A stretch of 64,000 nucleotides of DNA from an uncultured Verrucomicrobiae bacterium (GCA_963751435.1 CAVVUP010000029.1:133750-197749), one strand, 5' to 3'; counted from the stretch's first letter, positions 17,328 to 57,800 are shown. Program-made: numbers and translations. Notes: a model not told the origin generated them from the letters alone.

Positions 17328-19296
<1,969 letters not shown>

Positions 19297-19361
19297 AGTT
19301 TTGGTTTCTTGTTTGTTTCTTTGGTTTGTTCGGACTGAATCAACGCCTCGCCGCACCCACG

Positions 19362-21327
<1,966 letters not shown>

Positions 21328-29752: not shown

Positions 29753-31935
29753 GTGAAACGCATCGCCTCGAACCTGATCTGGCTGGCCGTGGCCTTGCTC
29801 GGTGCCCTGGCCTATGTGACCTTGGCGCTGCATCGGGGAGAGCCCATCAACTCGGCCTACATCCTGCTGGCCGCGCTGTGCACCTACGCCATCGGCTACC
29901 GGTTCTACTCCAAGTGGATCGCCGCGCGGGTGCTGGTGCTCGAACGACCGCCGCGCCACGCCGTGCGAGGTGCACGACGACGGCAAGGATTTCGTCAAGA
30001 CGAACAAGTGGATCGTCTTCGGCCACCATTTCGCCGCCATCTCCGGGCCCGGGCCGCTGGTGGGCCCGGTGCTGGCGGCCCAGTTCGGCTATCTGCCCGG
30101 CACGCTCTGGATTCTGATCGGCGTGGTGCTGGGCGGCGCGGTGCAGGATTTCGTGATTCTGTTCGCCTCGATGCGGCGCGACGGCAAATCGCTGGGCCAG
30201 ATGGTGAAGGAGGAGCTGAACACGCCGGCGGGCTACATCGCGCTGGTGGCCATCCTGGCCATCATGGTCATCCTGCTGGCGGTGCTGGCGCTGGTGGTGG
30301 TGAAGGCGCTGGCGGAAAGCCCCTGGGGCGTGTTCACCGTGGGCGCGACCATCCCCATCGCCATGTTCATGGGCGGCTACCTGCGGTTCTGGCGCGATCG
30401 GCAAGGTGCTGGAAGCGTCGGCCATCGGCGTGGTGCTGCTGCTGCTGGCGGTGTGGGGCGGCAAGCTGTGTCTATGAATACGCGCCGCTGGTCGCAGGTG
30501 TTCACGCTCGGCGACGAACCGCTGGCCTGGGCGATCATCGTCTACGGCCTGGCGGCGAGCGTGCTGCCGGTCTGGCTGCTGCTGGCGCCGCGCGATTACC
30601 TGAGCACCTTCATGAAGCTGGGCACGATCTTCGCCCTGGCGCTGGGCATCTTCCTGGTGCTGCCCGACCTCGCAGATGCCGGCGCTGACCCGGTTCGTGG
30701 ACGGCTCGGGCCTGGTGGTGGCGGGCAAGGTGTTTCCGTTCTGCTTCATCACCATCGCCTGCGGCGCCATCTCCGGCTTCCACACGCTGATCGCCAGCGG
30801 CACCACCCCAAGCTGATCACGCGCGAGAGCTACGCCCGCCCGATCGGCTACGGGGCGATGTGCCTGGAATCGCTGGTGGCCATCATGGCCATGATCGCCG
30901 CCTGCACCCTGGACCCGGGCGTTTACCTCAGCATGAACGTCAAGGGCGACCCGGCCGCCACCGTGGCCGACGGTGACCGTCGCTGGGTTTCCCGGTGACC
31001 GTCGAGCAGATGGACGAGCTGGCGCAAGCGAGGTCGGCGAGAAAACGCTGTTCGGCCGCACGGGCGGCGCCGCCACGCTGGCGGTGGGCATGGCCAGATC
31101 TTCTCGAAGGTCGGTCGGCGCAGCGCTGGCTCGATCTCTGGTACCACTTCGCCATCATGTTCGAGGCGCTGTTCATCCTGACCACCCTCGACGCCGGCAC
31201 GCGGGTGGGGCGCTACATCCTGCAGGACTTCCTGGGCAACCTCTGGAAGCCGCTGGGCGACACCACGCAACCTCGGGCGCCAACCTGCTGGCCAGCGGAC
31301 TGATGGTGAGCGGCTGGGGCTACTTCCTGATCCAGGGCGTGCGCGACCCGCTCGGCGGCATCAACTCGCTCTGGCCGCTCTTCGGCATCGCCAACCAGAT
31401 GCTGGCCGCCATCGCGCTCTGCCTGGCCACGACGATCATCCTGAAGAACTCAGCTCGCGAGAGTCAGCCGGGGCCGCCGTCCGATCCTGGCGCCCCAACA
31501 CGCCGTCGCAGTCCCTGGTTCGCGCTGGTGACCTTCGTGCCGCTGGTCTGGCTGGTGGCGGTGACCTTCACCGCGGGCGTGCAGAAGATCTTGCATGCCG
31601 ATCCGCGCATCGGTTTCCTGGCGCAGGCGGACAACCTGAACAAGGAGTTGCCGGCGCTGGAGCAAGCGGTTGCAGAGGCGCGGACGGCCGGAGACTCGGC
31701 AGCCATCGGGGCGGCGGAGAAGGCGCTGCGCACGAACCGCACCCTTGGGTTCAACAACCGTCTGGACGCGGTCGTTGCCGCCGCGTTCCTCGGCCTCGTC
31801 TCAGTGATCGTGGTCCTGAGCGTGCGCGAATGGGTGTTGCTCCTGGCTCGACGCAAACCCGCAGTGCTCCGCGAAAGCGAGCCTGTCTGGTTGGCGGACT
31901 ACGCGGTGATCGAGGGGGGACGCAGGTTCAGCGGC
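29753..31935 (+). pseudogene. cstA: Carbon starvation protein CstA (peptide/pyruvate transporter family), broken by at least nine frame changes
   Basis: CstA-like peptides appear in alternating frames: YRFYSKWIAARVL / DGKDFVKTNKWIVFGHHFAAISGPGPLVGPVLAAQFGYLPG / IGKVLEASAIGVVLLLLAVWGG / [21 protein letters not shown] / [12 protein letters not shown]...[22 protein letters not shown] / [17 protein letters not shown] / [13 protein letters not shown] / [21 protein letters not shown] / [26 protein letters not shown] / INSLWPLFGIANQMLAAIAL. Confidence 0.85.
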
Positions 31936-32127
31936 GTGGCCGGAACGGCGGCGCTGACGGTTGCCCTCGCGCGCGAGTTGTCCGGCGAAGCGCATTTCGA
32001 GCGGGCCCGGCACGAGCAGGCCGGCGTTTGCACCTGTCCCGTCCCGGGTGCCGGCGCCAAGTCCGCCGAACAGCTCTACCTCGAAGTGACGGAGCACCGG
32101 TTCAACGGCGTCCGACGGTGTTGTTGA
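31936..32127 (+). CDS. Possible YbdD/YjiX (DUF466)-like small protein, in frame with the cstA tail
   Basis: The last ~63 codons end ...SAEQLYLEVTEHRFNGVRRCC*. The terminal R-C-C and the position directly after cstA match the small DUF466 partner genes. A GTG at 31936 is a possible start. No stop separates it from the upstream frame. Confidence 0.35.
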   Translation: MAGTAALTVALARELSGEAHFERARHEQAGVCTCPVPGAGAKSAEQLYLEVTEHRFNGVRRCC

Positions 32128-43176: not shown

Positions 43177-43684
43177 GAATGGCAGCCCACTTTCCCTGAG
43201 CCTTGAGAATCAGCTCGCACACTTCGCGCACGGCGCCCTGCCCCCCTCGCGCACGTGTGACAAGGTCAACCTGCGCTTTCACTTCCCGCACCCCGTTGGC
43301 CGGCGCAATGGCCACTCCGGCCCGGCGGATCATCCCCAGATCCAGGACATCATCTCCGACGTAGCAGACGCATTCCCACTTCAAACCCAGTTTGCGCAGC
43401 AGCGCCTCCGTGGCAGGCACCTTCCCCTCCGTCGGTTGAAGGAGAAAATCAATCTTCAGATCGCGGGCCCGAACCCGGGTGGCCGCTGAGGGACGGGCGG
43501 ACACCCAGCCGACCCGGATCCCGCACTTGCGGAGAAACAGCAGGCCCAGACCATCGGGAACGTTGTACTGCTTGAATTCACCACCGGGTCCCATGAAGAC
43601 GGATCCATCGGTCATGACTCCGTCCACGTCGCACAGCAGCAACTGCACCCGGCCGAGACGGCTCTTGAGGGAAAGGCGGGGCAT
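43157..43684 (-). CDS. kdsC: KDO 8-phosphate phosphatase (HAD superfamily)
   Basis: 175 aa. Has LLLCDVDGVMTDG and CYVGDDVLDL. Confidence 0.88.
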   Translation of the reverse strand: MPRLSLKSRLGRVQLLLCDVDGVMTDGSVFMGPGGEFKQYNVPDGLGLLFLRKCGIRVGWVSARPSAATRVRARDLKIDFLLQPTEGKVPATEALLRKLGLKWECVCYVGDDVLDLGMIRRAGVAIAPANGVREVKAQVDLVTRARGGQGAVREVCELILKAQGKWAAILAEHAN

Positions 43685-43685
43685 A

Positions 43686-44504
43686 TCAGTTAAGGGCCTG
43701 CCGCACCTGGAGCAGTTGCCGGAGGAGCCGGCTCATCTTCCGCAAGGGAATCATGTTCGGGCCGTCACTCAAGGCTTTCTCTGGGTCGGGATGTGTCTCG
43801 ATGAACACGCCTGAAGCCCCTGCCGCTACGGCCGCCCGGGCCAGCACCGGCGCAAACTCCCGCTCGCCCCCCGAGCGGTCACCCGCCCCACCCGGCAGTT
43901 GTACCGAGTGCGTCACGTCGAACACCACCGGCAGACCCAACCGCTGCAGGATGGGAATGGACCGCATGTCCGCCACCAGGTTGTGGTAGCCAAATGTGGT
44001 CCCCCGCTCGGTCACCAGAATCCGTTCAGCACCAGCAGCCCGCGCCTTTTCCACGACGCGCCCCATGTCGCCGGGCGCCAGGAACTGACCTTTCTTGATG
44101 TTCAGAATCCGGCCCGTGGCAGCAGCGGCTTCGATTAAATCGGTCTGCCGACAGAGGAAAGCGGGGATTTGCAGAACATCCACCACCGTCGCCGCGACGG
44201 CCACCTGGGCCTCTGTATGGACGTCCGTCAGCACCGGAACACCAAACTCGCGCTGCACACGGCTCAACACCTTGAGCCCGGACTCGATCCCCGGGCCGCG
44301 GTAAGATTTTGCGGAGGTGCGGTTGGCTTTATCGAAACTGGCTTTGAAGGTGAAGGACAACCCCAGCTTGCTGCACGTCTTCAACAACGACTCCGCCACC
44401 CGCAAGCACAAGGACTCGCTTTCAATCACGCACGGACCGGCAATGACAAACAAGCCCCGCGGCGAGGTGTATTGCTTCCAAAGACTGGCGCTGGCAACTG
44501 GCAC
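43686..44504 (-). CDS. kdsA: 3-deoxy-8-phosphooctulonate synthase
   Basis: 272 aa. Has [36 protein letters not shown] and [11 protein letters not shown]. Confidence 0.93.
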
Positions 44505-44681
44505 CCGGATGTTTTATCAGCGCGCCCGCCCTGTGTAAACACGGGGCGCGACCAGGAACGCCAACTTCCGGCTGCACCCCACGCCTGTCGATGCGTCTCC
44601 TGCAAGCTCGAAAGCTGTCCACGCCGAGACGCCCGCTGCCGGATAAATCCAGCGTTTCGGCCCAGATGCGCCGCATAGGAC

Positions 44682-45608
44682 TCAAGTCGGCGTTCTAATC
44701 TCCTTCAGCGCCGACGGCACCAGCACCCGCAATCCGTGCGGTTCCACCCCAAAGGTGACCGGCAGATGACCCGCCCACTCGCCATCGACCTCCACGGACA
44801 CCAACTCGCTGCTCTCCAAACGAACCGTCTTGCCCCGCAGCCGTTGGACCATCCCTGCCGGAATCCGACCGGTCAGGAGCAGCGGCGGACCGCAGCGGAG
44901 CAGCGTCAGCAAGTTGACTCGGGGGAAAACGCACACTTCCAGGAATCCACTGCGCAGATCCCCGTCCGGGAAGATGTGAAAATTCCCGCCATAAAGCCGT
45001 CCGTTGCCGATCAAGATCATCTGGCCCGGCGTCACCACCTCATTGGCCGTGACCGAGATCGAGGGCGGGCGCTCCGCCAATGCGCGGAACCCGGCCAGGA
45101 CGTATGCGAACGGACCCACCTGCTTCTTGGTCTGCCAATCCACCAATTCAATGGCACGCGCATCCAGACCAGCGCCCGCCAGTTGGGTGAAAAAGTGGCG
45201 AACCGTTTTGCCCTGGCTCACCCGCTCGATCCAGGGCAGGTCCACCTGAATCTCCCGGCCCTTCGCCACCACCTCCCAGGCGGCATGCGGCTTCAGCGGA
45301 ATGCCCAACTCGCGCGCAAACACGTTCACCGTGCCCAAGGGGATGAAGCCCAGTCGCGTTCGCTCAAAGCCCCCAGGGACGTCCCCAATCCCGTTCAAAA
45401 CCTCGTTGAGCGTCCCATCACCTCCCGCCGCCACCACCGTGTCGTGCCCTTCCCGAACGGCCTCAGCCGCCAACCGGCGTGCGTGACCCGGAGCGCCTGT
45501 GAGTTTGAACACCGAGGCTGCCGCGATGGGATCCAGCTCCGCCCGGAATTTCCGGGCCTTTTCACCCTTGGCGGCTGGATTGAAAATAACACAGGGACGC
45601 ACGCGCAA
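44682..45608 (-). CDS. Diacylglycerol/lipid kinase family protein (YegS/BmrU-like)
   Basis: 308 aa. Has VIFNPAAKGEK, VVAAGGDGTLNEVLNG and PLGTVNVFAREL. Confidence 0.85.
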   Translation of the reverse strand: MRVRPCVIFNPAAKGEKARKFRAELDPIAAASVFKLTGAPGHARRLAAEAVREGHDTVVAAGGDGTLNEVLNGIGDVPGGFERTRLGFIPLGTVNVFARELGIPLKPHAAWEVVAKGREIQVDLPWIERVSQGKTVRHFFTQLAGAGLDARAIELVDWQTKKQVGPFAYVLAGFRALAERPPSISVTANEVVTPGQMILIGNGRLYGGNFHIFPDGDLRSGFLEVCVFPRVNLLTLLRCGPPLLLTGRIPAGMVQRLRGKTVRLESSELVSVEVDGEWAGHLPVTFGVEPHGLRVLVPSALKEIRTPT

Positions 45609-45830
45609 AATGATTCACGGGTTGGGTGCACACCGTCGAGTCGAAAGGCGACGGGAAACGAGAGCACAACGCCTGACGCGAATGGCAAGAATTTCCGCGA
45701 GCGGACTAGGATGAACAACGAAGGACTCGGAGATCACCAAAAGTCGGCGGCTCCCAGAGAACCCGGGCGGATCGCCCACACCAAAGTTCACTTCGTGCTC
45801 TCCGTTCTCCGTGGTGCTATCCGGCACTGT

Positions 45831-46469
45831 TCACCGACGGCGGACGACGCACCGAGCGAGAAACAGGAGGAAACCACCCGACACCAAGACGATGGGCGAG
45901 GGCTCCGGCACCGGCGAGACGGCCCCTTCGAAGGTGACATTGTCAAACGCCAACCAACCGTTCTGGTGGGCTGAGCCCCACCCATAAAAACGAATCGTGA
46001 CAGTTTCGCCGTCCGCTGTTGTGACGTTGGTGAAGTTCACCCCCACGTTCTGCCAGACGCCGACCGGACTGAAGTTCTGCGAATCCGCCAACGTCAGGCT
46101 GACCCCATTATAGATGCGCACTTGGCCGTTCAGGGGGCCGTCTTTCTCTCCCGCCGTTCGCTTGTCCACGCTGCGCTGCACATCAAACGATAGAGTCGTC
46201 AGATTCAAGGAGTAGCCGGCGGCCGGAGTGATCGTGAACTGAAAGTATTCCCCGAGATCCTGTGCGGCGGCGAGCGTCCAGTTCGCGCTCTCGAAAAGCT
46301 CCGACACGCTGAGAGCACTCACATTCACGCGACTGAAAGGCGTGAACGTCAAATTGGCCGCCGCCGGTGTATTGGTGTCCCCGGCCGGGTCGGGACCGGG
46401 AAATGTGTAAGTGCCCAGGGTCGCGCCGCTGGCTGTGGAAATGGTCAGCCACGCGACCCACCCGATCAT
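45831..46469 (-). CDS. PEP-CTERM-anchored secreted protein
   Basis: The C-terminus VPEPSPIVLVSGGFLLFLARCVVRRR has the PEP motif, a TM segment and a basic tail. The likely start is MIGWVAWLTISTASG at 46469; the track start is 46604. Confidence 0.75.
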   Translation of the reverse strand: MIGWVAWLTISTASGATLGTYTFPGPDPAGDTNTPAAANLTFTPFSRVNVSALSVSELFESANWTLAAAQDLGEYFQFTITPAAGYSLNLTTLSFDVQRSVDKRTAGEKDGPLNGQVRIYNGVSLTLADSQNFSPVGVWQNVGVNFTNVTTADGETVTIRFYGWGSAHQNGWLAFDNVTFEGAVSPVPEPSPIVLVSGGFLLFLARCVVRRR

Positions 46470-46681
46470 TGCGAAGGGACAGATTCCGCTTCCCCTGAGC
46501 CACAGGGTGGGGCCGCGCTGTGCGCGGCCCGGGCGCCGGAGCACCGGCGCCCCACCGGGTTCATGGTCGCCGGGCGCGATTTTGAAAGCGTGTAGGCTCT
46601 TCATGATTGCCTTGGCAGGCTAGTGGGACGCTTCAAGCCAACCAACAAGAGAAAGACCCTTGGCTAGAAGCAACCCTCGAC

Positions 46682-47086
46682 TCACTCAACCGGTTGATTC
46701 ACCGCAGGCAGACACTCGGCGATGGTGGCCAAGAGTTGTTCGATGTTCAGGGGCTTCTGGAACAGCATCGAAGGTTGAAAACGATCCGCGTGAGCCTGGT
46801 GCTTTTGAATGCTGTCGGCCGTGATGAAGAGCACCGGCTTGTCCCACGCAAGCCCGATGTGTCGAAGCCAGTCCGCAACGCCGAATCCATCCCAATTGAA
46901 GGTCGGGTCCGGCGGAAAGCTGATGTCCAGGATGAACAAGTCCGGAGCGGCGCTGCGCGCGACCGTCACCGCCTCCGAGGGATCCACCGCCGTAAACACC
47001 TCATAGCCGGCAGCCTTCAGCTTGTACCGGAGCAGGTGAAGGATCACCTTGTCATCGTCCACCACGAGTATCTTCTGTCTATTCAT
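46682..47086 (-). CDS. Stand-alone receiver-domain response regulator (RR1)
   Basis: Starts at the ATG at 47086: MNRQKILVVDDDKVI...DLFILDISFPPDPTFNWDGFGVADWL...VLFITAD...FQKP. All canonical receiver residues are present and there is no output domain. Confidence 0.85.
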   Translation of the reverse strand: MNRQKILVVDDDKVILHLLRYKLKAAGYEVFTAVDPSEAVTVARSAAPDLFILDISFPPDPTFNWDGFGVADWLRHIGLAWDKPVLFITADSIQKHQAHADRFQPSMLFQKPLNIEQLLATIAECLPAVNQPVE

Positions 47087-47321
47087 GAACTTTGCACTAG
47101 TTGGCAGGGAATCGGCGTTAACTTGCCTCATTCCGGGGCATCCCACGAAACCAATACCCTGTTTCAGCATCTTCAGTGCCGCCACGTCACCGTCAGCGTG
47201 GTCTCTCAACGTAGACATCGTTGTCTGCCGGACTGGCTGAGGCGGGGCAATGAGACCCAGAGTGGGGACGGTGCGGCTTGAGGTCGGCGTTCCTGGCGGC
47301 CAAGCACAGGGGCTCGCGGAC

Positions 47322-47354
47322 AAAAAGCAGGCGCCGCTCGGAAGCGGCGCCTGC
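47322..47354 (-). terminator. Rho-independent terminator after pseudopilin module A
   Basis: The minus strand reads GCAGGCGCCGCT-TCCG-AGCGGCGCCTGC followed by TTTTT. The perfect 12-bp stem begins 28 nt after the stop at 47382. Confidence 0.85.
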
Positions 47355-47381
47355 CCAACCAAACCAGCAACCCAGAAGAAA

Positions 47382-48822
47382 TCAAAGTTCAGCCCAACTC
47401 GTGGGGATGAAGCCCCGGCTGGGACCAACGTTGGCCAGGTTTTCGTCGTAGTGGAAGTTGAAGTGACCGTTCATCTTCACACTTCGGGTCACACTGGCTC
47501 CGACGAAGTCGTAGGTATTGTTCCCTCCGCCACCCAGCGTGAAGTCCGCGTGGTTGGCATAGATCGCGCCGGTGAAGGCTGCGTTTCCGCCAAAGACAAT
47601 CTCCGTGTTGCTGGGCAGGCCAAAGTAAAGAAAGCTCGCCGCGTTGCCACTTTCATTCACGACGCCGTTCCCCCCGACCTTGAACTGGCTGCCGCCCATG
47701 TACACCGTCAACCTTTGCGCACTGGAGCTGATGCGAATCTCATCCTTGCCCGTCAGGCTGACATTGCCAGTGAAATAGACGCGTGCGTTGACGCCGGAAC
47801 CCACATAGACGCTGCCGCTCAAGGTGGACGCCTTGTAGTCTCCCGCTCGAGGTGATGACATGCCGGTAGGTCACCCCGTTGATCACCACGCCCTTCTTGC
47901 CTGCATCTGGCAAGGCAAACCACGTGGTCTCGGGGATATTCACATCATCCAATCGCACGTTCATGTCATCGCTGGAATAGCCCGGCTGAATCCCACCTTT
48001 TCCGGTCGACACCCACGCTTCCGAGCCCGCGGATCCGTTAGGTCCAATGGAGATGGTCCCTCCGGGTCCCGTGCTCACATGGCCCATGATGTCTGCGTTC
48101 CCGAGACTCACGGAATCGATGATGTCATAATTGCTGGCCACGTCCCCGTTGTCATTGCGCTTGCTGGGATCATAGATGCCAAACGTGGCCCCCGGAGCCC
48201 AATAACTGGCATTCGGATCCGCCGAGTTGAAGCTGTCGGTGGCGATGTTGTTGCCCTTAAAATCGATCTGCTTGTCGGCCAGCATGGCCAGTGACCAAAG
48301 GGCGTCCCGCCGTGTGTGCACATGCACCTGGCGCCGGAGGTAGCGGCTCTGGAAGCCACCGAACGCAGTCCCTGCCGCCGCAGTACTGACGGGAACATGC
48401 TTATACTCGTAATCATAACGCAGATACCCATAGGCCGTGATGGTCGGGGCGGTCGGGACGCTGTTGGAAATGATGACAAAGTAAAGCGCCCGGTAATCAT
48501 TGCCCAACCAGCGGATGGTGTAGAACGAATCCGGACCGTACGGGGTCCATTGATCCTGTCCAAGGGAGGCGGACGTGCTCCAATCCAGGAGCTTGGAGTT
48601 GTCGTAATTGAACTTGTTGATCATTTGCAACGCATCCTCGACACCCGCTTCAGCAACTGCAATGGACTGGTTCCAGGACTGAGACCGGGCATTGCTGAAG
48701 GTTTGGTGTTGGGTCAGCAACAGGAAGCTGGCGAGCGTAGCGCCGATCACAAAGGTGATGACCATGGTGGTGGCCAGCACACTGCCGGCCTCGGACTGCG
48801 ACTTGGGCGTGGGGATTCTCAT
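47382..48822 (-). CDS. Module A large subunit: PilX_N-type / GspK-position protein, with one frame change at the G-run 47842-47844
   Basis: The N-terminus MRIPTPKSQSEAGSVLATTMVITFVIGATLASFLL...SIAVAEAGVEDAL is a hydrophobic helix plus an AEAG motif, as in PilX N-terminal domains. The C-terminus continues in ORF 47382-47861 and ends ...HFNFHYDENL...TSWAEL. It is colinear with the 50123-51829 paralog. Confidence 0.7.
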
Positions 48823-48840
48823 ACGACGTTCTCCTTTGGA

Positions 48841-49422
48841 CTAATTGCGGATGACGATCTTTGCGGTTTGCACACTTTCCGTGTTCAGCTTGCTTCCCAG
48901 AATCTTGCGTGAGCAGCGCCAGCTCACATCCAGGAGTTTGGCTTGGGCCACTGTGGATGCCGGATAGAAGTTGAAATCGTTGGAGGGGTTTCGCTGGGAG
49001 ATGTTGAAGGACAAGTAATCGCACTGTTCCAGCAACACCTGGCGGGCACCGCCCTTAAGCTGGGTCAGCGTCTCCGCTTGGGGATCATATTCGTAAGCCA
49101 GCATGGTTCCGTTGAGCATGCGCAACTGAACCCGATTGGTGGTGAAACTCACCACGGACGCTGCCTGTCGCACCTCCCGGCTCATCGTATCCAGCGCCCG
49201 GGTGCTGGCGCGTTCGAGATCGTTGTAGTTGCCCATCGCAACGAAGCTGCGCACGGTGAACATGGTCAAGGTGGCCACAATGGCCAGCACGAACACACCC
49301 AACCCCATCGCCACCATCATCTCGACGAGGGTGAATGCGCCTGAACGGGCCAACCTCGCGCCGCTGGCTCGCCAGCGATACACCCGCCCCCTGATGAATG
49401 CTCCCTCAGCGATCATAGACAT
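48841..49422 (-). CDS. Module A medium prepilin-type protein (GspJ/PilW-sized)
   Basis: 193 aa. Has an N-terminal methylation-type motif SGAFTLVEMMVAMGLGVFVL and ends ...ESVQTAKIVIRN. Confidence 0.75.
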   Translation of the reverse strand: MSMIAEGAFIRGRVYRWRASGARLARSGAFTLVEMMVAMGLGVFVLAIVATLTMFTVRSFVAMGNYNDLERASTRALDTMSREVRQAASVVSFTTNRVQLRMLNGTMLAYEYDPQAETLTQLKGGARQVLLEQCDYLSFNISQRNPSNDFNFYPASTVAQAKLLDVSWRCSRKILGSKLNTESVQTAKIVIRN

Positions 49423-49894
49423 AATTCTGTAGCCCGTTCCTGGAGACCATGGTGGTCATGGATCGGTGCCGAGGTACATTCCCGGACTGCCATTGCACCC
49501 CCACAGTCACGAAACGGAGGTTGTTCACGTACGACGGCGCCGGATTCAAGACCGCATTGGTCACGCTGAGCGTGCCGGTGTAGGCGATGCCGTTGGCGGT
49601 TGAGCCACCCACTTTCGGGTAGTAGCGCGTGCTGAATGTGCTGGGGACCATGTTGCTAGCCACCACCTGGTTCCAGTTGAACAGGCGGATCCCCTCCATT
49701 CTCTCGACCATGATCTGGGTGGCCCGCAGGTTCTCCCGCGATACCTGCGTCATGGCAAACCCAGCCGACATGCCCGCATAAAGCGAAACAAAACTGACCC
49801 CGAGAATCCCCACAGCAATGACGACCTCGGCCAGGGTGAAGCCGGCTTGCCGGGGCGGGCGTCGGACAGGTTTGGCACAACTCAAAATCCTCAT
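49406..49894 (-). CDS. Module A small prepilin-type protein (GspI/PilV-sized)
   Basis: 162 aa. Has RQAGFTLAEVVIAVGILGVSF (G|FTL.E) and ends ...GNVPRHRSMTTMVSRNGLQNYVYDR. It overlaps the next gene by 17 nt. Confidence 0.78.
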   Translation of the reverse strand: MRILSCAKPVRRPPRQAGFTLAEVVIAVGILGVSFVSLYAGMSAGFAMTQVSRENLRATQIMVERMEGIRLFNWNQVVASNMVPSTFSTRYYPKVGGSTANGIAYTGTLSVTNAVLNPAPSYVNNLRFVTVGVQWQSGNVPRHRSMTTMVSRNGLQNYVYDR

Positions 49895-49956
49895 GGCTAC
49901 GACTTATTGTTTCCCGAAATCATCCGTTCTCCGTGTTATTACTCAGACAATAGATC

Positions 49957-49971
49957 GCATTGGCCATGCCA
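49957..49971 (-). promoter_or_regulatory. Sigma-54-like -24/-12 element upstream of module A (TGGCAT-N5-ATGC)
   Basis: The minus strand reads TGGCATGGCCAATGC with GG-N10-GC spacing, about 62 nt upstream of the ATG at 49894. Confidence 0.45.
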
Positions 49972-50122
49972 AGAGGATTCCCAACCCCATTCGTTCTAAA
50001 GCCGCCCATTTCCGCAACTCATTGAAGATCACGGGACTTGACGGTACGGAAACAAGGAAGCCAGGAGCCGGGTTCTGAGGTTGGCTCGGTTTCAATTTTG
50101 AGAACGGAGCAGTGCCGGCTCC

Positions 50123-51829
50123 TCAAAGTTCGTTCCAGGAAGTCACCAGGTAGCGGGCGTTAGAATTGTAACTCTTCAAAGCTTCGTCGTAATGGAAGCT
50201 GAAGTGGCCGTTGAGTGTTGCGGATCGGACGACGATCGAACCGATGAAATCCAACTGGTCGTTTCCGCCGCCGTTGAGCTTGAGGTCGGCGTTGGAGGCG
50301 TAGAGCACCGCGGTGATCTCCGCGTTCCCGCTGAAGTTGATATCCTGGACGCTGGGCGTGCACCAGATCATGCAGTTGGCGGCATAACCGCTCTTGTTGA
50401 TGACGCCGTTTCCGGCAAGATCGATGGAGGAGCCGCCGGCGAAGAGTTCGAGCTTGCCATCGGAGTTGATGAAGATTTCACCATTAAAGCCGTCTCGGGC
50501 CACCAAGCGGGCGTTGCCCCGCACGAACACGCTGCCGTTGATCTCATCCACATGGTAATTCACTGGCGACAACCCGGGATTACCTCCATTGAGGATGTAA
50601 TCGTAGGATTGCGTCGTCACCACGTAATTGGTCGTGTAAATGTTGTAACTGTAGCTATAAACGGGGTAGGTGTAGCTGTAGCCGGTGATCTTGTTGTAAT
50701 AATATTTCGATCCTTGCTTCGTCACCTCCCCCACGTAAGTGCCTGCGGCGGGGTAGCTCTTGCTCGACGTGTAGGTGGTCAGGGTATTAGCGACCATCCC
50801 GGAGGGTTCCGGGCTCGGCCGCACGGAGGTGGTTGCATAGCTGATGTTGGTGATGACACCGGAAGCGGGAGCTGGATTGGGATAATTGGCGGTCGTGGTG
50901 GTGCCGCTACTTACGGAGATGTTGGTGGTGGAAACGGTGCCCGAGGTGGGCGTGGCACCGAAAGTGTGGGGCAGTTCGACATCTGGGAAGGTGAAATTGC
51001 TGTCGTCTCGGAAGTGGCCCGACTGGATCCCTTTGTTGCCGGCCTGACGCCAGGCGTAGGTGCCTACGCCGCCATTCGGCCCCAGGTTGGGCACCCCTCC
51101 CGGCCCAACCACCAAATGGCCGTAGATCTCCGCGTTATCAACAGCGGCGGCGCCAACGAGGCTGGAATTGACATAGACATCGCCATTGCTTCGCAGCTTG
51201 GCCAGGTTTCCCGCCGGATAGAGCCCCTTATTGCTGTAGAGTGGATTGTTGGAGTCGAAGCTGTCGGTGAGGACCCCGTTGCCGTTCATGTCCACTCCCT
51301 CTTTGGCGATCAGGGCACCTAAGAACAGTCCGCCCTGACGGGTGGCCCGCACCTCAATCGTCCGACTGATCCGTTGCGCCACCGCTGACCGGGAGGTCGA
51401 GTCCTGCCCGACCGTGGTACCCGCCACAGCGAGCGTGCCCCCGGCGTTCAAATCGCCAAAAACCGGGGCATCGTGATACCCCACGGACTTGACGATGGGG
51501 TTGTTGATGTCGAACGCTTCAATGGTGACGACGTAATGGGAATCCGCCGAGATGGACTGGGCACGCTGGTAGGAGCTGCCGTTGCGGGTCCAGCCGCCCT
51601 GTTCCAGGTCGGGACTGTTCGAGTTCAGGTGTTGGAGCCCTTCCTCGATCCCGGCTTCCGCCACCGAGATGGACATATTCCACACCTGCGCCCGGTGTCC
51701 GATGAATTGTTGGTGCCGGGCATTCATCAGATAGCCCACGATGCTGATGAGCAGAAACGTGCAGAGGAACAGGGTTACCATCAAAGCGGTTCCCTGCTCG
51801 CCGGATCGGGGACTTGGTGGGATTCTCAT
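50123..51829 (-). CDS. Module B large subunit: PilX_N-type / GspK-position protein
   Basis: Starts at the ATG at 51829: MRIPPSPRSGEQGTALMVTLFLCTFLLISIVGYLM...SISVAEAGIEEGL. 568 aa, ending ...HFSFHYDEAL...TSWNEL. Paralogous to 47382-48822. Confidence 0.75.
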   Translation of the reverse strand: MRIPPSPRSGEQGTALMVTLFLCTFLLISIVGYLMNARHQQFIGHRAQVWNMSISVAEAGIEEGLQHLNSNSPDLEQGGWTRNGSSYQRAQSISADSHYVVTIEAFDINNPIVKSVGYHDAPVFGDLNAGGTLAVAGTTVGQDSTSRSAVAQRISRTIEVRATRQGGLFLGALIAKEGVDMNGNGVLTDSFDSNNPLYSNKGLYPAGNLAKLRSNGDVYVNSSLVGAAAVDNAEIYGHLVVGPGGVPNLGPNGGVGTYAWRQAGNKGIQSGHFRDDSNFTFPDVELPHTFGATPTSGTVSTTNISVSSGTTTTANYPNPAPASGVITNISYATTSVRPSPEPSGMVANTLTTYTSSKSYPAAGTYVGEVTKQGSKYYYNKITGYSYTYPVYSYSYNIYTTNYVVTTQSYDYILNGGNPGLSPVNYHVDEINGSVFVRGNARLVARDGFNGEIFINSDGKLELFAGGSSIDLAGNGVINKSGYAANCMIWCTPSVQDINFSGNAEITAVLYASNADLKLNGGGNDQLDFIGSIVVRSATLNGHFSFHYDEALKSYNSNARYLVTSWNEL

Positions 51830-51840
51830 GCTAAGCCTTC

Positions 51841-52401
51841 TTATTTCTTGCGGATCACAATCTTGGCTGTTTGAACATCCTCGCTGTTCGCCAGACCGTT
51901 CGGCAGGGTGCGTCGCGTTTTCCAACTGAGGTCGATGACTTTGGCGGTGGACTGAAATTCACCTTGGGTGGGAGGGAAATAATTCCAGGAATTCGACTTC
52001 AAGTTGCGCTGGCCGACGTGGAAATTGATGAGCTGACAATTCTCCAGCAGGACGCTGTAGTCCCAAGCCCCGCTGGGCTTTTCCACCAGACGATAGAGGC
52101 GGTCCACGCCGTTGCCGATGAAGTAATAATAGACCGTATCCCCGTCTCCATTCACGATCTGGAGCAGGTTGGTTGTGTAATTGGCGACCATTTTAGCCTG
52201 CCGAATTTCGCGTGTGAGCTGATCCATCGCCTGCTGGTTCATGCGATCGAGCGCCGTGTAGTTTGAGAGCGCCGCCATGCTGCGAATGCTGAACAGGAAG
52301 GTGCTCCCAAGCGCCGCCGCCCCGATGGAAAACACCGCGATGGCAATCATCATCTCGATCAAGGTCCACCCGCGGGATGCGAGCTGAGGCTTAATAGACA
52401 T
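51841..52401 (-). CDS. Module B medium prepilin-type protein (GspJ/PilW-sized)
   Basis: Reads MSIKPQLASRGWTLIEMMIAIAVFSIGAAAL and ends ...EDVQTAKIVIRKK. The alternative track start is 52416. Confidence 0.78.
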   Translation of the reverse strand: MSIKPQLASRGWTLIEMMIAIAVFSIGAAALGSTFLFSIRSMAALSNYTALDRMNQQAMDQLTREIRQAKMVANYTTNLLQIVNGDGDTVYYYFIGNGVDRLYRLVEKPSGAWDYSVLLENCQLINFHVGQRNLKSNSWNYFPPTQGEFQSTAKVIDLSWKTRRTLPNGLANSEDVQTAKIVIRKK

Positions 52402-52858
52402 AATTTTGCACTCCATCCTTGGCGATCATTGTGGTGAGCGAACGATGCCGGGGTACGCCCGCGGTGCTCCAGTTGAGCGTCACGGTGAGAAAATTGATGT
52501 TGCCGCGGTAGCTGGCCGGCATTTCCGTGGGGGCCGAGGCGATGGCGATGGTGCCCGTGTAGATGACTCCACCCCGCGTGCTGGGGTCGTAGTATTCCGT
52601 AAAATTTGTCGGAACAAACCCGGGGGTGTGCAGTTGGTCCCAGCTATAGAGCCGGACGATCTCGGTCGCCTCGATCAGCACCTGGGTCGCGCGTTGATTC
52701 TCCTGCGTCATGGCCACGATCCGGAATCCGCTGGCAAAAGCCATCATGATCCCGGCCGCACAGATGCTCAGGATGGTGCTGGCCATGATCACCTCCGGAA
52801 GGGTGAACGCCTGTTCGTTCCTGCGATGACTGCTGCCGATGCGACCTGAAAACTTCAT
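52391..52858 (-). CDS. Module B small prepilin-type protein (GspI/PilV-sized)
   Basis: Starts at the ATG at 52858: MKFSGRIGSSHRRNEQAFTLPEVIMASTILSICAAG and ends ...GVPRHRSLTTMIAKDGVQNYVY. It overlaps the next gene by 11 nt. Confidence 0.75.
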   Translation of the reverse strand: MKFSGRIGSSHRRNEQAFTLPEVIMASTILSICAAGIMMAFASGFRIVAMTQENQRATQVLIEATEIVRLYSWDQLHTPGFVPTNFTEYYDPSTRGGVIYTGTIAIASAPTEMPASYRGNINFLTVTLNWSTAGVPRHRSLTTMIAKDGVQNYVY

Positions 52859-52907
52859 TTGCAATACGTCTGCCGTGTGTTGTTCTGCTGTCTCTGCTCC
52901 TCCAAGG

Positions 52908-52922
52908 GCATAGGATGTGCCA
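52908..52922 (-). promoter_or_regulatory. Sigma-54-like -24/-12 element upstream of module B (TGGCAC-N5-ATGC)
   Basis: The minus strand reads TGGCACATCCTATGC with GG-N10-GC spacing, about 49 nt upstream of the ATG at 52858. Confidence 0.5.
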
Positions 52923-53227
52923 CCCTGCGAACGGCCTGATTTTTCAGGCCTCTGAGAACCACCCACCCTTTGCCTCGTTCCCGACGTCCGGTTTTGTCCG
53001 AGCCGTGTTCAGAGTTGTCCACACCAAGGACAGGGAGTTGTGACTCTCATCCTCAAGCCAATCGCGGCCCTGAGAATTTTCACGGTCAACGTGTCCGTAC
53101 TCCTGCCCGCATCCCACTCGCCGAACGGGCTGGTTCGCTGAATCCGTGCCAGAAGACTCACTGGAGCCAGCCGGTCTGGATCAAGTCGTGCTCTCTCACT
53201 CCCGGGGAACCCAGGCCTCACACGAAT

Positions 53228-53647
53228 ATGGAACACATGAGCAGGAAGCGAATCCTGATTGCCGATGACAGTCTGACGGTATTGAAGGCTTTTGAAATCA
53301 AGCTGCAATCCGCCGGCTACGAGACGGCCACGGCCGTGGACGGCAGCGAAGCGCTGGCACAGGCGGGCCGGTTTCATCCGGACCTCGTCATCATGGACAT
53401 CAACTTTCCCCCGGACATCAGCCAGGGCGGTGTCACTTGGGATGGATTCCAGATCATCCAGTGGATGCGGACGACCGGCGCCGCCGGCACGGCTCCGGCC
53501 ATCATCATCACCTCGGATGACGTGGAGCAGCATCGGACCCAGGCCCTGGCCGCCGGGGCCGTGGCGGTCTTTCAGAAGCCGATCAAGCTCAAGGACCTGA
53601 TGGATACCATCCGCGAGTGTCTGGAGGAACAGCCTCAAAGTGCATAG
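53228..53647 (+). CDS. Stand-alone receiver-domain response regulator (RR2), a paralog of RR1
   Basis: Starts at the ATG at 53228: MEHMSRKRILIADDSLTVL...DLVIMDINFPPDISQGGVTWDGFQIIQWM...IIITSDD...FQKP. It is divergent from module B across a 370-bp spacer. Confidence 0.85.
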   Translation: MEHMSRKRILIADDSLTVLKAFEIKLQSAGYETATAVDGSEALAQAGRFHPDLVIMDINFPPDISQGGVTWDGFQIIQWMRTTGAAGTAPAIIITSDDVEQHRTQALAAGAVAVFQKPIKLKDLMDTIRECLEEQPQSA

Positions 53648-53883
53648 CCGGTTCGACTTTCGTAACGCGACCTCGGCCGCAACCATGCCATTCAGAAAAC
53701 GGCATACGGATTCAACACAGAGGCGCAGAGAACAGAGTGACGCAGACGGCAAGCACTTACAGGTCCCCGCTGGGGATTGGAAACTCGCTGACCCACTTCT
53801 GTGTGCCCCTGCGTTTCTGCGTCCCGGTATTAATCACCCGCTTCCGCGATTGCCAGGGACAGGTTGACCGGTAACATGCCCGC

Positions 53884-54705
53884 ATGTCGTTGCTCACGAT
53901 TCCGAGAGCCGCCAAGTGGCCTTTCTTCGTTGGAGACGGGTTGCTGCTTGGACTGGCCTGGTTGTTCTACACGCAGGCGAAGCTGCCTATGAACGGCCCC
54001 ACACTCGTCGCCTGCGTGGCCTGTTTCGCCATTGGCGCCGTTCTGGGCATCACCCCGTTCATTCTGGATCATCAGGCAGAGGTCAAGATCGCGGAATCCA
54101 ATGGCTTGGCCTCCACGGTCGATCGGATTCGAGGGCTTGAAACCATCGCGGCGGCTGTGCAAAGCGCCACCGGCCGGTGGCAGGGCGTGCACGAACATGC
54201 CACACAGGCGATCAACGCCGCGCGGCAGGTTTCCGAGAAGATGAGCGAGCAGATGACGTCGTTCATGGAATTCCTTGAAAAAGCCAATGATTCTGAGCGC
54301 CAACACCTCCGGCTCGAAGTGGACAAGCTCAAGCGGGCTGAATCGGACTGGCTGGGTGTGCTGGTTCGCATCCTGGACCACGTCTTTGCCATCCACTCCG
54401 CCGCGCGCCGCTCCGGCCAGCAAAAAGTGGTGGATCAGCTCACCCAGTTTCAGCTCGCGTGCCGCGACACCGCACGCCGCGTCGGTTTGACCCCCTTCGA
54501 AGCGGAACCGGGTGCGCCCTTTGACCCGCAGCAGCACCAACTGGTTGGGGGCGGCGAGGTTGTAGCAGAATCGCGCATTGCCGAAACCGTGGCCACGGGG
54601 TTCACCTTCCGAGGACAGATGATTCGACCTGCAGTCGTGGCCCTGGAGGGCGCAGGTACAACGCCGGCGCAGGATTCTGATCAGGACAACCCTGGCAATG
54701 CTTAG
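53884..54705 (+). CDS. Membrane-anchored GrpE-like protein (2 TM + coiled coil + GrpE C-terminal-like domain)
   Basis: 273 aa. TM segments WPFFVGDGLLLGLAWLFY and LVACVACFAIGAVLGITPFIL, then a coiled coil. The stretch LVRILDHVFAIH...QLACRDTARRVGLTPFEAEPGAPFDPQQHQLV...IAETVATGFTFRGQMIRPAVVAL parallels the GrpE pattern LL.V.D.L.RA...L...G...I...G..FDP..H.A....V...GY...G..LRPA.V.V. Confidence 0.6.
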   Translation: MSLLTIPRAAKWPFFVGDGLLLGLAWLFYTQAKLPMNGPTLVACVACFAIGAVLGITPFILDHQAEVKIAESNGLASTVDRIRGLETIAAAVQSATGRWQGVHEHATQAINAARQVSEKMSEQMTSFMEFLEKANDSERQHLRLEVDKLKRAESDWLGVLVRILDHVFAIHSAARRSGQQKVVDQLTQFQLACRDTARRVGLTPFEAEPGAPFDPQQHQLVGGGEVVAESRIAETVATGFTFRGQMIRPAVVALEGAGTTPAQDSDQDNPGNA

Positions 54706-54810
54706 CCCCGGTTGTGAACCTCACACGGCAGGCCGCCGCCGCATTGACGCTGCCGGCTCACGACGGGACTTGAGACAGGACCGGACAGCGCCGGGCTTGG
54801 AGTAACGGGT

Positions 54811-57800
54811 CTACCCCCCTCCCAGTTCCACCGTTTCAACTGCAGCCAGGAAATGCAGCCACTGATGACCAACAGGCTTTCTGAATATTCGTTCCAAAGC
54901 AGCCGCATAGAGCCGGAGTTGCGGCTGGTATTCCCTGGCCCTCTGCCTCAATGCCTCTCCTTGGACCTCATCGGTCTTGTAGTCCAGGAGCCAAAACTCG
55001 TTCTCGAGCACGACGGCGAGATCCACGATTCCCTGAACCACCACGAACTCCCCATGGAGGGACACCTCTGGTTCCTGCCCGAGAATGGAACGCACCTCGG
55101 CATCTTCCAACCGAACGGTGAACGGCAGTTCACGTCTGACCCGGGGAGTCACCTCGCAAATTCTCCGGCCCACGGCGGAGGTCCAAAACGAAGCCACCTT
55201 CTCCAAATCGAGAAGCTCAGCTTCCGACGGTGAGAAGAGCCTTTGATCGACAAAGACCTTCAGTTGTTCCGCCAACTCCCCCACATCAGCGGCTCTTGCG
55301 ATCTGAATGTGCTGCAGGAAACGATGATGCAAGGTCCCGCGCTCGGCGGCTGATGGAGGGCTTTGCGGCAGACGAGGTCCGGTTGGATGTCGATGCCAGG
55401 CAAAACGGTGGACCGCCTCGTCGTCGAACCGTTCCAGCGCACGGTGTCGGAGGGCGGATACGGAACTTTTTGCGGCCGCTGTGGTGGCAGACGGATGCTT
55501 GTAGAACCATGACAACCGTCCCGCGACTGCCTCCAAGGACCTTCTGTCGATGGGCCGATCTGCCCTAGGGCGTCGGCCTGCATCGCGCAGGTCAGCCGGC
55601 GGGGTCAGGCGCTGGTCGTTCGGTTTCCAGCATTCCCATGTCAGAAGTCTGGTTGCCCCCTGGTCGTCGTCTGTTTGATCCGACGCCTGCGTCACGGAGG
55701 GTAGCCATGCCGTCAGCCAGTCCAGGGGGGTTCGGGCTGTCATCAGGTCCTGATCGGACAGGCTCGGTGAAGTCTCAGGGTCTTGATCCTTTCGAAGCAG
55801 CGAGCCCGTGAGGATCAACCGGTCGCGCGCGCGTGTGGTGGCCACATACAACAATCGTAATTCCTCGCCCAGCCGTTGGGTGCGCTGACGTCGTTCAGCC
55901 AGCCAGAAGGGCAGTGTGGGGTAACGCGCCGTGCCCGAGGGCGTCAGGGCCTTGGGGGCAAGACCATAATGCGGATCGAGCAGCAGGACGGAATTCAATT
56001 CCTGAAGGTTGAACCGCCCACCCAATGCAGCCAGAGCCACCACTGGAAACTCCAGTCCCTTGCTGCGATGGACGCTCATCAACTGCACAGCGTTACGGCT
56101 CATGACAGGCGCCGGTTCTGGCGCCCCGTTCGTTGTCTCAAGCGACTCCATGAAGCGCAGGAACCGAAACAGCCCCTGCCGATGATAGGGATCGAATTGA
56201 CGGGCGTAATCCAGCAAGAGACCGACATTGGCCATCTGTTCCTGCCTGCGATCGTTGACGCTGAGCAGGACGTCGTAGCTCGTATCTGCAAGCACCCGTT
56301 CCAAGCTAAGCGAAGGCCCCACCTGGCGCGCCAGTTCCCGCCAGAGATCGAACTGGGTGAGAAACGAGTCTAGACGATCACGAAGCGCTGTGCGGGCGGC
56401 GGCGTCCACTGGCTCCCTGATCGCAGCCGTGTCTGGTTCACGCCGCAGGCTGTCAACAAACCTCCTGAGTGCCCACCAAAGCGGTCTGACGTCGCTGTAG
56501 GCCCGGATGGCGGCCAGCTCATCCAACGCCAACCCCACCAGTGGCGAGCGTAACACAGCCAGCAACGGGATGTCTTGGAGCGGGTTGTCGAGCAGCCTCA
56601 GAAGGTTGATCAAGTCGCTGACCTCGATCGCATCGAGAAACCCGGCCCGCGCGGCGGCCAGCGGAATGCCGGCCCGATGAAACTCTTTGGCAAACGCCTC
56701 GGCTCGCGTTCCGGGAGATCGCAGCAGCACGGCCATGTCCCCCCACTCGACCGGTCGGAGGCCCTCGCTCTTCTTGTCCCCAATCATGAAGCCGGACTCC
56801 TTCAGCTCACGCAAACGCGTTGCCACCAGTCGGGCCTCCTGTTCCGTGACCGAAAGCGGTTCCTCCATGCTTCCCCCCACATCCACATCGCCGGATTCAC
56901 CCCGTGATTCCTTGCGGAGCAGGTGCAGCTCAACGCACGGAGCGTCACCGAGGCTGGCCCTGTGGCTCTCAATGCCCGCCTGCAGGGGTTCGTAAGACAC
57001 GCCGCCAAAGGATTCGCGCATCAAGCCATTGAACAAAGCGTTCACAAACTCGATGAGGGCGGGCCGGCTGCGAAAGTTCTCCGTCAGCGCGATGCGCTGG
57101 CCCGCCTCGGGCGACGCCAGAGCCAACCCAGTCGAGTTCGGGACCTCAGCCGCCTGTCCACCTCCCCAATCCTTCTCGTAACGCCGAAAAATCTGAGGAT
57201 CCGCCAGACGAAACTGGTAAATACTCTGCTTCACGTCGCCCACGAGGAACCGGTTGGCATCGGCGCCCGTTCGGCTGATGGCAGACAGGATGGCGTCCTG
57301 GGCGGCGTTGATGTCCTGATACTCATCCACAAAGACGTAGTCGAACTGCTTCTGCACCGCCTCCGCTGCGGAGGTGGGTTGCCCTCGATCGTCCCGCAAC
57401 AACTGCAACGCCAGTTGTTCAAGGTCGGGGAAGTCAACCCCTCCCAAGTCACCTTTGGCACGAGTAAACCGAGCGGTGAACTCTGCGGTCAGCGCCAGCA
57501 GAGCCTGCATGTGTCCATGCACCGCCTGCCAGTCCGCTTCCAAGGCTCCCGGCTCGGCGACCGAGGCCAGGAATCGCGCTTCGTCAAAGCATGAATTCAG
57601 CGGATCGCGTACACGTCCGGCCGTGCCCTTGGGCCATGATGCAGCTCCCGCCGCCGCCACCGCGCCAGCCACCTGGGCCACTTGGGCACGCGTGATCTCC
57701 CGGGTGACCGACTCCATCGCCTCCAGACAGTCGTCGATATTCTTGATACCCGCTTGCGGTTCGATCAAGGGCAGCCAGCGTTGATGCCAGTCTGTGAAGC

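Follow-up and report, generated by a model that had tools for sequence, protein, structure and literature searches.

Two tandem prepilin-type gene triads with DUF7305 proteins in a Verrucomicrobiae genome as probable priming and tip complexes of a type IV pilus-like filament

In a DNA stretch of 64,000 nucleotides from an uncultured Verrucomicrobiae bacterium (GCA_963751435.1, CAVVUP010000029.1:133750-197749), which is called the window in the following, two tandem three-gene modules were found between positions 47,382 and 52,858. Each module codes for a small (S), a medium (M) and a large (L) protein, in this order, and the copies are referred to as module 1 (S1, M1, L1) and module 2 (S2, M2, L2). 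Each triad is probably a core minor-pilin complex that starts a type IV pilus-like filament and afterwards forms its cap, with the assembly machinery encoded elsewhere in the genome. The triad is genuine and not a chance arrangement, it is conserved in relatives and widespread in the phylum, and it represents an unstudied case, found in Verrucomicrobiota and with DUF7305 proteins, of an already known type of system. A previous interpretation made from the DNA alone (the sequence-only reading) had already proposed tip or priming sets for a machine encoded elsewhere. This is backed by the preservation of the triad as a unit in relatives, by pilM and secretin genes next to it in some of them, by weak matches of S and M to minor-pilin models and by the lack of a glutamate at position 5 (Glu5) in L, while the machine itself was not seen in this genome. 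For its second proposal, a self-contained surface structure of an uncharacterized kind, no evidence was obtained.

Two tandem triads with six genes of the described sizes and order, all located on the minus strand, were confirmed, with module 2 lying upstream of module 1 (Table 1). All motifs quoted in the sequence-only reading were likewise found, among them QNYVY at the end of S, VQTAKIVIR at the end of M and TSW(A/N)EL at the end of L. Its claim that the overlap of S and M is conserved in the DNA holds as well, as the 64 kb contain exactly two copies of the 11-mer AATTATGTCTA (0 copies expected), one per S/M junction. The 11-mer codes for the conserved QNYVY at the end of S and includes the start codon (ATG) of M, and since it is present at both junctions, the S/M overlap is alike in the two modules. 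The true start of M2 is likely the ATG at position 52401 within AATTATGTCTA, which would shorten the protein to 186 amino acids. Scans for promoters and terminators, including the spacer of 228 bp between the modules, gave signals at chance level, and a search for RNA runs returned none.

All four smaller proteins pass the cut-offs of the models N_methyl and TIGR02532, with N_methyl scores of 26.6 bits for S1, 25 bits for S2, 21.3 bits for M1 and 27.6 bits for M2. Their class III signal has the form (G/A)|(F/W)TLxE including Glu5 and reads AFTLPE in S2. Searches with hidden Markov models (HMMs) were extended to the families of both proteins. Members of the S family (31 in total) match ComGE (24), Verru_Chthon protein B (18), GspI (16 at E ≤ 0.1, best 6e-6), XpsI (11) and PilV (9). 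Members of the M family (30 in total) match PRK10557 (20, best 5e-8), ComGF (18, 2e-8), Verru_Chthon protein C (15), GspJ (6) and cyanobacterial HpsC (4, 7e-8). PRK10557 is the model of an Escherichia coli-type 'prepilin peptidase-dependent protein' with 192 positions, which we take to be PpdB from the model length. For the single proteins, S1 matches Verru_Chthon protein B with 21.8 bits (cut-off 51.4), PilV with an E-value of 0.0017 and GspI with an E-value of 0.037. The cut-offs of the GspI model TIGR01707 (44.35 bits) and the PilV model TIGR02523 (52.2 bits) are not reached by S1 with 14.5 and 18.9 bits, respectively, and S2 gave no match to TIGR01707. M2 matches ComGF (E 3.9e-6), PRK10557 (E 7e-4) and GspJ (E 1.2e-3), the latter with 18.7 bits against a cut-off of 64.85 bits for TIGR01711, and M1 matches Verru_Chthon protein C with 20.2 bits (cut-off 256.5) and ComGF with an E-value of 0.005.

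In profile searches of the PDB sequences, the matches of the S and M alignments were confined to the pilin helix at the N-terminus, and the L alignment gave no match at E ≤ 10. The AlphaFold2 model of M2 (mean predicted local distance difference test, pLDDT, 87) shows a helix from residue 19 to 72 followed by eight strands. Its top Foldseek matches are to Thermus TTHA1219 (5g23/5g24), covering 190-199 columns with a probability of 0.85-0.99, a template modelling score of 0.3-0.45 and weak E-values of 0.04-0.1. TTHA1219 is XcpW/GspJ-like, and its upstream neighbor TTHA1218 (Tt1218) is GspI-like (PMC5131608). From the weak but family-wide HMM matches, S can be provisionally assigned to the GspI/PilV/ComGE class, and the equally weak family-wide matches of M together with the modelled fold of M2 suggest the GspJ/PilW/PpdB/ComGF class.

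The large proteins match DUF7305 (PF23981, gathering cut-off 27 bits) with 61.6 bits for L2 and 71 bits for the C-terminal piece of L1, as do all 28 aligned L members (L2 and 27 homologues). In addition, 12 of these 28 match pAdhesive_15, termed 'ice-binding-like adhesive domain' in Pfam. The large proteins had been described as 'PilX_N-like', which has to be given up, as the Pfam model PilX_N matches neither L1, L2 nor any of the 27 homologues (0/28). Furthermore, L1 and L2 gave no match in NCBIfam at E ≤ 1, including the GspK model NF037980 and the HpsA and Verru_Chthon models. The L homologues start with a short basic leader, usually followed by G, A or S and about 20 hydrophobic residues, and none of them carries a glutamate at +5.

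The AlphaFold2 model of L2 (pLDDT 82.9) comprises a helix of 64 residues (7-70), a sheet (81-180), a beta-rich body up to residue 548 and a last strand (561-567). This conserved C-terminal strand ends with TSWNEL. The best Foldseek matches are ice-binding proteins, i.e., 3uyv (E 0.04, probability 0.99), 5b5h and 5uyt. According to this model, L would consist of a pilin helix and sheet which carry an ice-binding-protein-like beta-solenoid, an architecture that appears to match Thermus ComZ and cyanobacterial PilX rather than GspK. The beta-solenoid nature of L was not part of the sequence-only reading, and neither was the frameshift in L1 described below. An enzymatic beta-helix in L is unsupported, as Pfam gave only DUF7305 and pAdhesive_15.

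The conservation of the triad was analyzed in relatives, of which 256 were confirmed with one genome per species, and 80 loci were examined. Almost all of these loci belong to Verrucomicrobiota of the Limisphaerales/Pedosphaera type. The genes S, M and L were found in that order in 76 of the 80 loci (tblastn), and each of the four others is truncated by the end of its contig. Ten loci carry two or more complete triads no further than 10 kb apart, and 23 have two or more large genes. In one locus there are four large genes, of which three belong to complete triads. All 86 homologues of L2 from the word index are DUF7305 proteins, and an exhaustive profile search yielded 7087 clusters at 50% identity for the large-protein family (E ≤ 1e-3). 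Therefore, the conservation of the triad as a unit, a check proposed in the sequence-only reading, was clearly seen, and its description of the modules as orphan and unusual does not hold, given the size of the family and the frequency of multi-copy sets in the phylum.

A hint toward the type of machinery comes from the neighborhood of the triad in relatives. In 7 of the 80 loci, and also in L004-L006 and L089, a triad has both a pilM gene and a secretin gene no more than 10 kb away. Where the gene order was read, the triad directly adjoins an operon of pilM, three small genes (N, O, P) and the secretin gene. PilM was recognized with TIGR01175 (8e-25), and matches to the GspD/PilQ models identified the secretin. 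By our own estimate, a single such operon would be met by chance in about 0.3% of random 20-kb segments of a 6-Mb genome. A major-pilin-like gene of 130 amino acids with a canonical N-terminus, matching PilA (3e-15) and GspG (6e-12), is located near L in 7 of the 80 loci, usually just downstream. In some loci L is replaced after S and M by a variant large protein of about 523 amino acids, called c5 (L056, 12457-14026, and 13 other genes). The C-terminus of c5 matches cyanobacterial HpsA (8e-7) and its N-terminus weakly matches GspK (E 0.005).

For the function of the triad the following course can be proposed. S and M, in which the signal and Glu5 are present, would insert into the inner membrane via the class III signal and the hydrophobic helix and would be cleaved by the prepilin peptidase. 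L would join them with a similar N-terminal helix but without Glu5, as expected of the first, top-most subunit (compare GspK). Judging by analogy to the GspIJK complex and to PilA2/PilA3/ComZ of Thermus, the three proteins could form a staggered heterotrimer, in which L would be the top subunit, S would take the place of GspI/PilV and M that of GspJ/PilW. The assembly machine, consisting of PilB/C/D, PilMNOPQ and a major pilin, would be encoded elsewhere in the genome, and major pilins would polymerize below the trimer, so that the latter would come to lie at the pilus tip. The ice-binding-protein-like beta-solenoid of L may then act as a bulky plug and as an adhesin.

Several observations weigh against this interpretation. 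Neither a fourth, GspH/FimU-like minor pilin nor PilY1 was found in the cassette, and the six-frame scan of the window for class III signal motifs yielded S1, M1, S2 and M2 only. Pfam scans of about 50 open reading frames (ORFs) of the window detected neither a secretin nor an ATPase, a platform protein or a prepilin peptidase, and 73 of the 80 loci show no machinery up to 10 kb from the triad. In the HMM comparison of the six proteins, which had been suggested before, S and M pass N_methyl and TIGR02532, but all matches to named minor-pilin models remain below the curated cut-offs and fall mainly on the N-terminal helix. The fold matches of the L2 and M2 models are weak (E 0.04 or worse), and the L2 model retrieved neither GspK, PilX nor ComZ, the latter being absent from the top 50 Foldseek matches. 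Finally, L1 is frameshifted in the window sequence as given.

The same protein matches also bear on the idea that the triads are tips of a type II secretion system (T2SS) pseudopilus, i.e., true equivalents of GspI-J-K which drive secretion instead of capping an extended pilus. Gene order and sizes are as in I-J-K, S members match GspI and XpsI and M members GspJ, c5 shows the weak similarity to the GspK N-terminus mentioned above, and one gene (c8) of the adjacent operon in relatives weakly matches GspM. Moreover, the Thermus minor pilins resemble T2SS pseudopilins more closely than they do other pilins (PMC5131608). However, every one of these scores stays below its cut-off, L has a predicted beta-solenoid where GspK has an alpha-helical insertion domain (PMC6561018), and the machinery adjacent to the triad in relatives consists of a separate PilM and a secretin and not of GspL/E/F. 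On general grounds, a bulky tip solenoid of 400 amino acids is also more plausible as an adhesin exposed on the surface than as a piston in the periplasm, and a T2SS function is considered unlikely.

The window lacks a major pilin, in most loci no pilin gene adjoins the triad, and L is large and adhesin-like. These points would agree with a self-contained short stub on the cell surface, in which the trimer is pushed through the secretin and displays the L solenoid as an adhesin, with no major-pilin fiber. Such a stub would nevertheless require a peptidase, an ATPase, a platform protein and a secretin and would not be self-contained. In addition, a major-pilin-like gene does occur near L in the seven loci mentioned, and the ComZ and cyanobacterial PilX architectures prime real filaments, which makes the stub very unlikely. 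A priming and tip complex for a pilus-like filament is preferred for each triad.

The solenoids differ between the two modules, with L2 carrying an extra insert of about 120 amino acids. One may speculate that the two modules are alternative tips of one machine, giving rise to two filament types or binding specificities, and that the paralogous receiver-only regulators flanking them choose between the modules. In a broader form of this idea, the triads would be a repertoire of exchangeable tips, e.g., for different polysaccharides or particles, with a post-translational choice by the receiver-only regulators and with the three-protein core being sufficient for priming. This is a tentative proposal, which we regard as possible but doubtful.

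Regarding the age of the two modules, S1 and S2 share 39% and M1 and M2 36% of their residues, and L1 and L2 are 32% identical over the N-terminal part of about 300 residues and 44% over the C-terminal 140 residues. The insert of L2, which is missing from L1, is rich in threonine and tyrosine. At the DNA level a single stretch of 63 bp aligns between the modules, with 75% identity. An assembly repeat is ruled out by this lone 63-bp match and by protein identities of 32-44%, in agreement with the old duplication that had been proposed before. The closest relatives, L009 (77%) and L002/L003 (73%), carry the same tandem pair of a long and a short version, with intact orthologues of both modules. 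Since they share this long-plus-short pair, the duplication predates the split from the L002/L009 relatives and is, as judged from the sequences, old and retained.

In the window L1 is distributed over two ORFs in two frames, 47740-48822 (360 amino acids) and 47382-47861 (159 amino acids), which is caused by one extra G in the GGG at 47842-47844. The Logan contig L001 (run ERR10755939) is 99.975% identical to positions 43210-55010 of the window (11.8 kb) and differs by two indels only. It lacks the extra G and encodes an intact L1 of 479 amino acids, and deleting one G from the window restores exactly this protein. In L001 it is L2 that is broken instead, by 2 bp missing relative to window positions 51549-51550 (L001 3461/3462). 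Thus, each assembly inactivates a different large gene, and neither indel site is a long simple repeat. The reads in the runs found stem only from relatives with 95-99% identity, and their coverage is zero at 47682-48063. Three further genes of the window are split into two ORFs in two frames each, namely those for GroEL (17328-18967, minus strand), a class V aminotransferase (15225-16392, minus strand) and CstA (29970-32127, plus strand). The window assembly thus seems prone to indels, and because GroEL, CstA and the aminotransferase are split as well, the frameshift of L1 is most likely an assembly indel.

Alternatively, the frameshift could be real, with only one functional module and a decaying downstream copy, so that the pair would not represent two alternative cassettes. 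L1 is indeed split in the window, and the 2-bp deletion that splits L2 in the other assembly would allow that inactivating variants circulate. Against this stand the intact L1 in L001, the intact orthologues of both modules in L002, L003 and L009, the further split genes of the window, which point to assembly indel errors, and the content of G and C at third codon positions (GC3), which is high in all triad genes and stays at 0.71-0.76 across them. A decaying copy is considered quite unlikely.

Table 1. Coordinates of the two triads and of neighboring features in the window.
Feature	Position	Strand	Remarks
S2, small prepilin-type minor pilin, module 2	52391-52858	-	155 aa
M2, medium prepilin-type minor pilin, module 2	51841-52416	-	191 aa from first ATG
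L2, large tip-type pilin, module 2	50123-51829	-	568 aa
Intermodule spacer	49895-50122	-	228 bp
S1, small prepilin-type minor pilin, module 1	49406-49894	-	162 aa
M1, medium prepilin-type minor pilin, module 1	48841-49422	-	193 aa; start overlaps the end of S1
L1, large tip-type pilin, module 1	47382-48822	-	split in the window; intact in L001 (479 aa)
Receiver-only response regulator, just downstream of L1	46682-47218	-	Pfam Response_reg 49.5 bits, sole domain; gene call from L001
Receiver-only response regulator, divergent from module 2	53228-53647	+	Response_reg 69.5 bits, sole domain
Membrane GrpE-like gene	53884-54705	+	beside the triads

The surroundings of the triads agree with the sequence-only reading, which had listed two receiver-only regulators, a PEP-CTERM protein and a GrpE-like membrane protein as neighbors and had noted that the 64 kb contain no pilus or T2SS machinery and no other prepilin, as the Pfam and six-frame scans now confirm. 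The remaining ORFs have housekeeping functions, e.g., AddAB, GatCAB, HPr kinase, a KdsA-like protein, diacylglycerol kinase, Kup, ClpPX, DnaK, GroEL and DnaN. In a PilM profile search, none of the 120 matches listed, out of 3824, lies on the contig of the window itself.

The two receiver-only regulators are paralogues with 42% identity. Because their divergence resembles that of S and M, the duplicated unit may originally have held four genes, the regulator included. Both regulators also share an insert, DI(S/N)FPPD...WDGF, directly after the presumed acceptor aspartate. Response regulators of this family recur next to the triad in 18 of the 80 loci, diacylglycerol kinase genes in 11 and the GrpE-like gene together with AddA in 6. 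The GrpE-like gene stands beside the triads in L002 and L003 as well as in the 6 species loci, usually next to AddA. As a cyanobacterial preprint ties minor pilins to a DnaK-DnaJ system (bioRxiv 10.64898/2026.02.12.705559), a comparable link between the GrpE-like neighbor and the minor pilins is possible by analogy. A mobile or phage element was excluded, as the neighborhood of AddA, GrpE-like gene, triad and diacylglycerol kinase recurs in relatives, the large protein of which is 33-40% identical to L2.

Further features were observed around the triads. An IS66-family element follows directly after the second module in the 73% relative (L002 14703-16245, L003 7411-8602), at the place occupied in the window by the regulator and the PEP-CTERM gene. 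A recurrent cassette beside triads comprises genes for a small protein, a HATPase_c sensor kinase, a beta-propeller protein of about 700 amino acids, a GerE-type response regulator and a protein of about 390 amino acids (L007, L049, L059, L060, L065, L069, L074, L084 and L088). A secreted protein of about 930 amino acids with PKD, HYR and Ig-like domains is encoded after L in L038 (11829-14630), L040, L046, L051 and L056. Some triad-bearing records of metagenome-assembled genomes are titled 'uncultured Bifidobacterium', 'Bifidobacteriaceae' or 'Klebsiella sp.', and these labels look wrong (doubtful organism labels in L014, L015, L017, L022, L026, L032, L035, L059-L061, L065 and L069). Finally, the AT skew at positions 18001-20000 of the window, in the GroEL/DnaK interval, is -0.33 and lies well beyond that of most of the window.

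The analysis provides a working annotation for the large DUF7305 family, whose 7087 clusters are unnamed in the literature searched, and no paper on DUF7305, Verru_Chthon or Verrucomicrobial minor pilins was found in this search. It extends to Verrucomicrobiota the picture known from Thermus and cyanobacteria, in which a GspI-like, a GspJ-like and a beta-solenoid tip pilin prime specialized type IV filaments, and thereby extends a known principle rather than adding a new one. Verrucomicrobiota are abundant polysaccharide degraders in soil and freshwater, so a repertoire of tip adhesins, if true, would bear on particle attachment, and if the tips were exchangeable, a single type IV pilus machine would carry different beta-solenoid adhesins in turn.

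The closest match in organization is the Thermus locus with the gene order pilA2 (TTHA1218), pilA3 (TTHA1219), comZ (TTHA1220) and pilA4 (PMC5131608; PMC6561018). ComZ has a pilin fold with an ice-binding-like beta-solenoid inserted before the last strand and has been argued to sit at the tip (PMC6561018). Common to both systems is the succession of a GspI-like protein, a GspJ-like protein and a pilin with a solenoid, the latter predicted in the case of L, followed by a major-pilin-like gene, here in 7 of the 80 relatives. M2 has its best, albeit weak, fold match in TTHA1219, and in the L2 model a single strand appears to follow the solenoid, as in ComZ. On the other hand, the L profile gave no match to ComZ among the PDB sequences at E ≤ 10, Foldseek did not retrieve ComZ, and the cassette described here is duplicated and lies away from a major pilin. 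It also belongs to another phylum and lifestyle, and nothing here suggests DNA binding.

In cyanobacteria, core sets of PilV-PilW-PilX(-FimT) occur as Com and EPS types, two minor-pilin sets were shown to prime two distinct filaments on one machine, and all PilX proteins carry an ice-binding-like beta-solenoid, which was proposed to replace PilY1 as tip plug (bioRxiv 10.64898/2026.02.12.705559). Both groups have several sets per genome, which in cyanobacteria are proposed and partly shown to prime distinct filaments, and M members match HpsC, as c5 does the HpsA C-terminus. In contrast, the Verrucomicrobial cassette has no FimT/GspH-like fourth gene, and L falls into DUF7305, with no NCBIfam HpsA match for L1 and L2.

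The T2SS tip complex GspK-GspI-GspJ (PDB 3CI0, cited in PMC5131608) resembles the triad in its three subunits, in the gene order I-J-K, in the presence of Glu5 in the two smaller subunits and its absence from the largest one, as in S, M and L, and in the weak HMM matches between S and GspI and between M and GspJ. It differs in that the window has no gsp operon and the neighbors in relatives are pilM and secretin genes, and in that L has a predicted solenoid instead of the alpha-helical insertion domain of GspK, with scores below the family cut-offs. From the FimU-PilV-PilW-PilX set of type IVa pili the triad differs by PilV scores below the cut-off, by the absence of PilX_N matches in L (0/28) and by the lack of a FimU-like pilin and of PilY1.

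The Verru_Chthon cassette (NCBIfam TIGR02596, TIGR02598 and TIGR02599) is another multi-copy prepilin-type cassette of the same phylum, and 18 of the 31 S members match its protein B and 15 of the 30 M members its protein C. However, the scores are far below the cut-offs (21.8 vs. 51.4 bits for S1, 20.2 vs. 256.5 bits for M1), M is about half as large as protein C, and L matches no model of the cassette. The triad has three genes, whereas the Verru_Chthon cassette presumably has four, including the one of model TIGR02600 (A). True membership in GspIJK, PilVWX or Verru_Chthon was rejected, as the curated HMM cut-offs are not reached, and because the searches found no similarity of L to ComZ either, the triads are proposed to work like these systems and not to be members of them. 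In Myxococcus xanthus, several alternative clusters of minor pilins and PilY1 for priming and tip formation serve one type IVa pilus machine, each set consisting of four minor pilins and a separate PilY1. In the Verrucomicrobial triad, by contrast, the largest pilin itself carries the adhesin-like domain.

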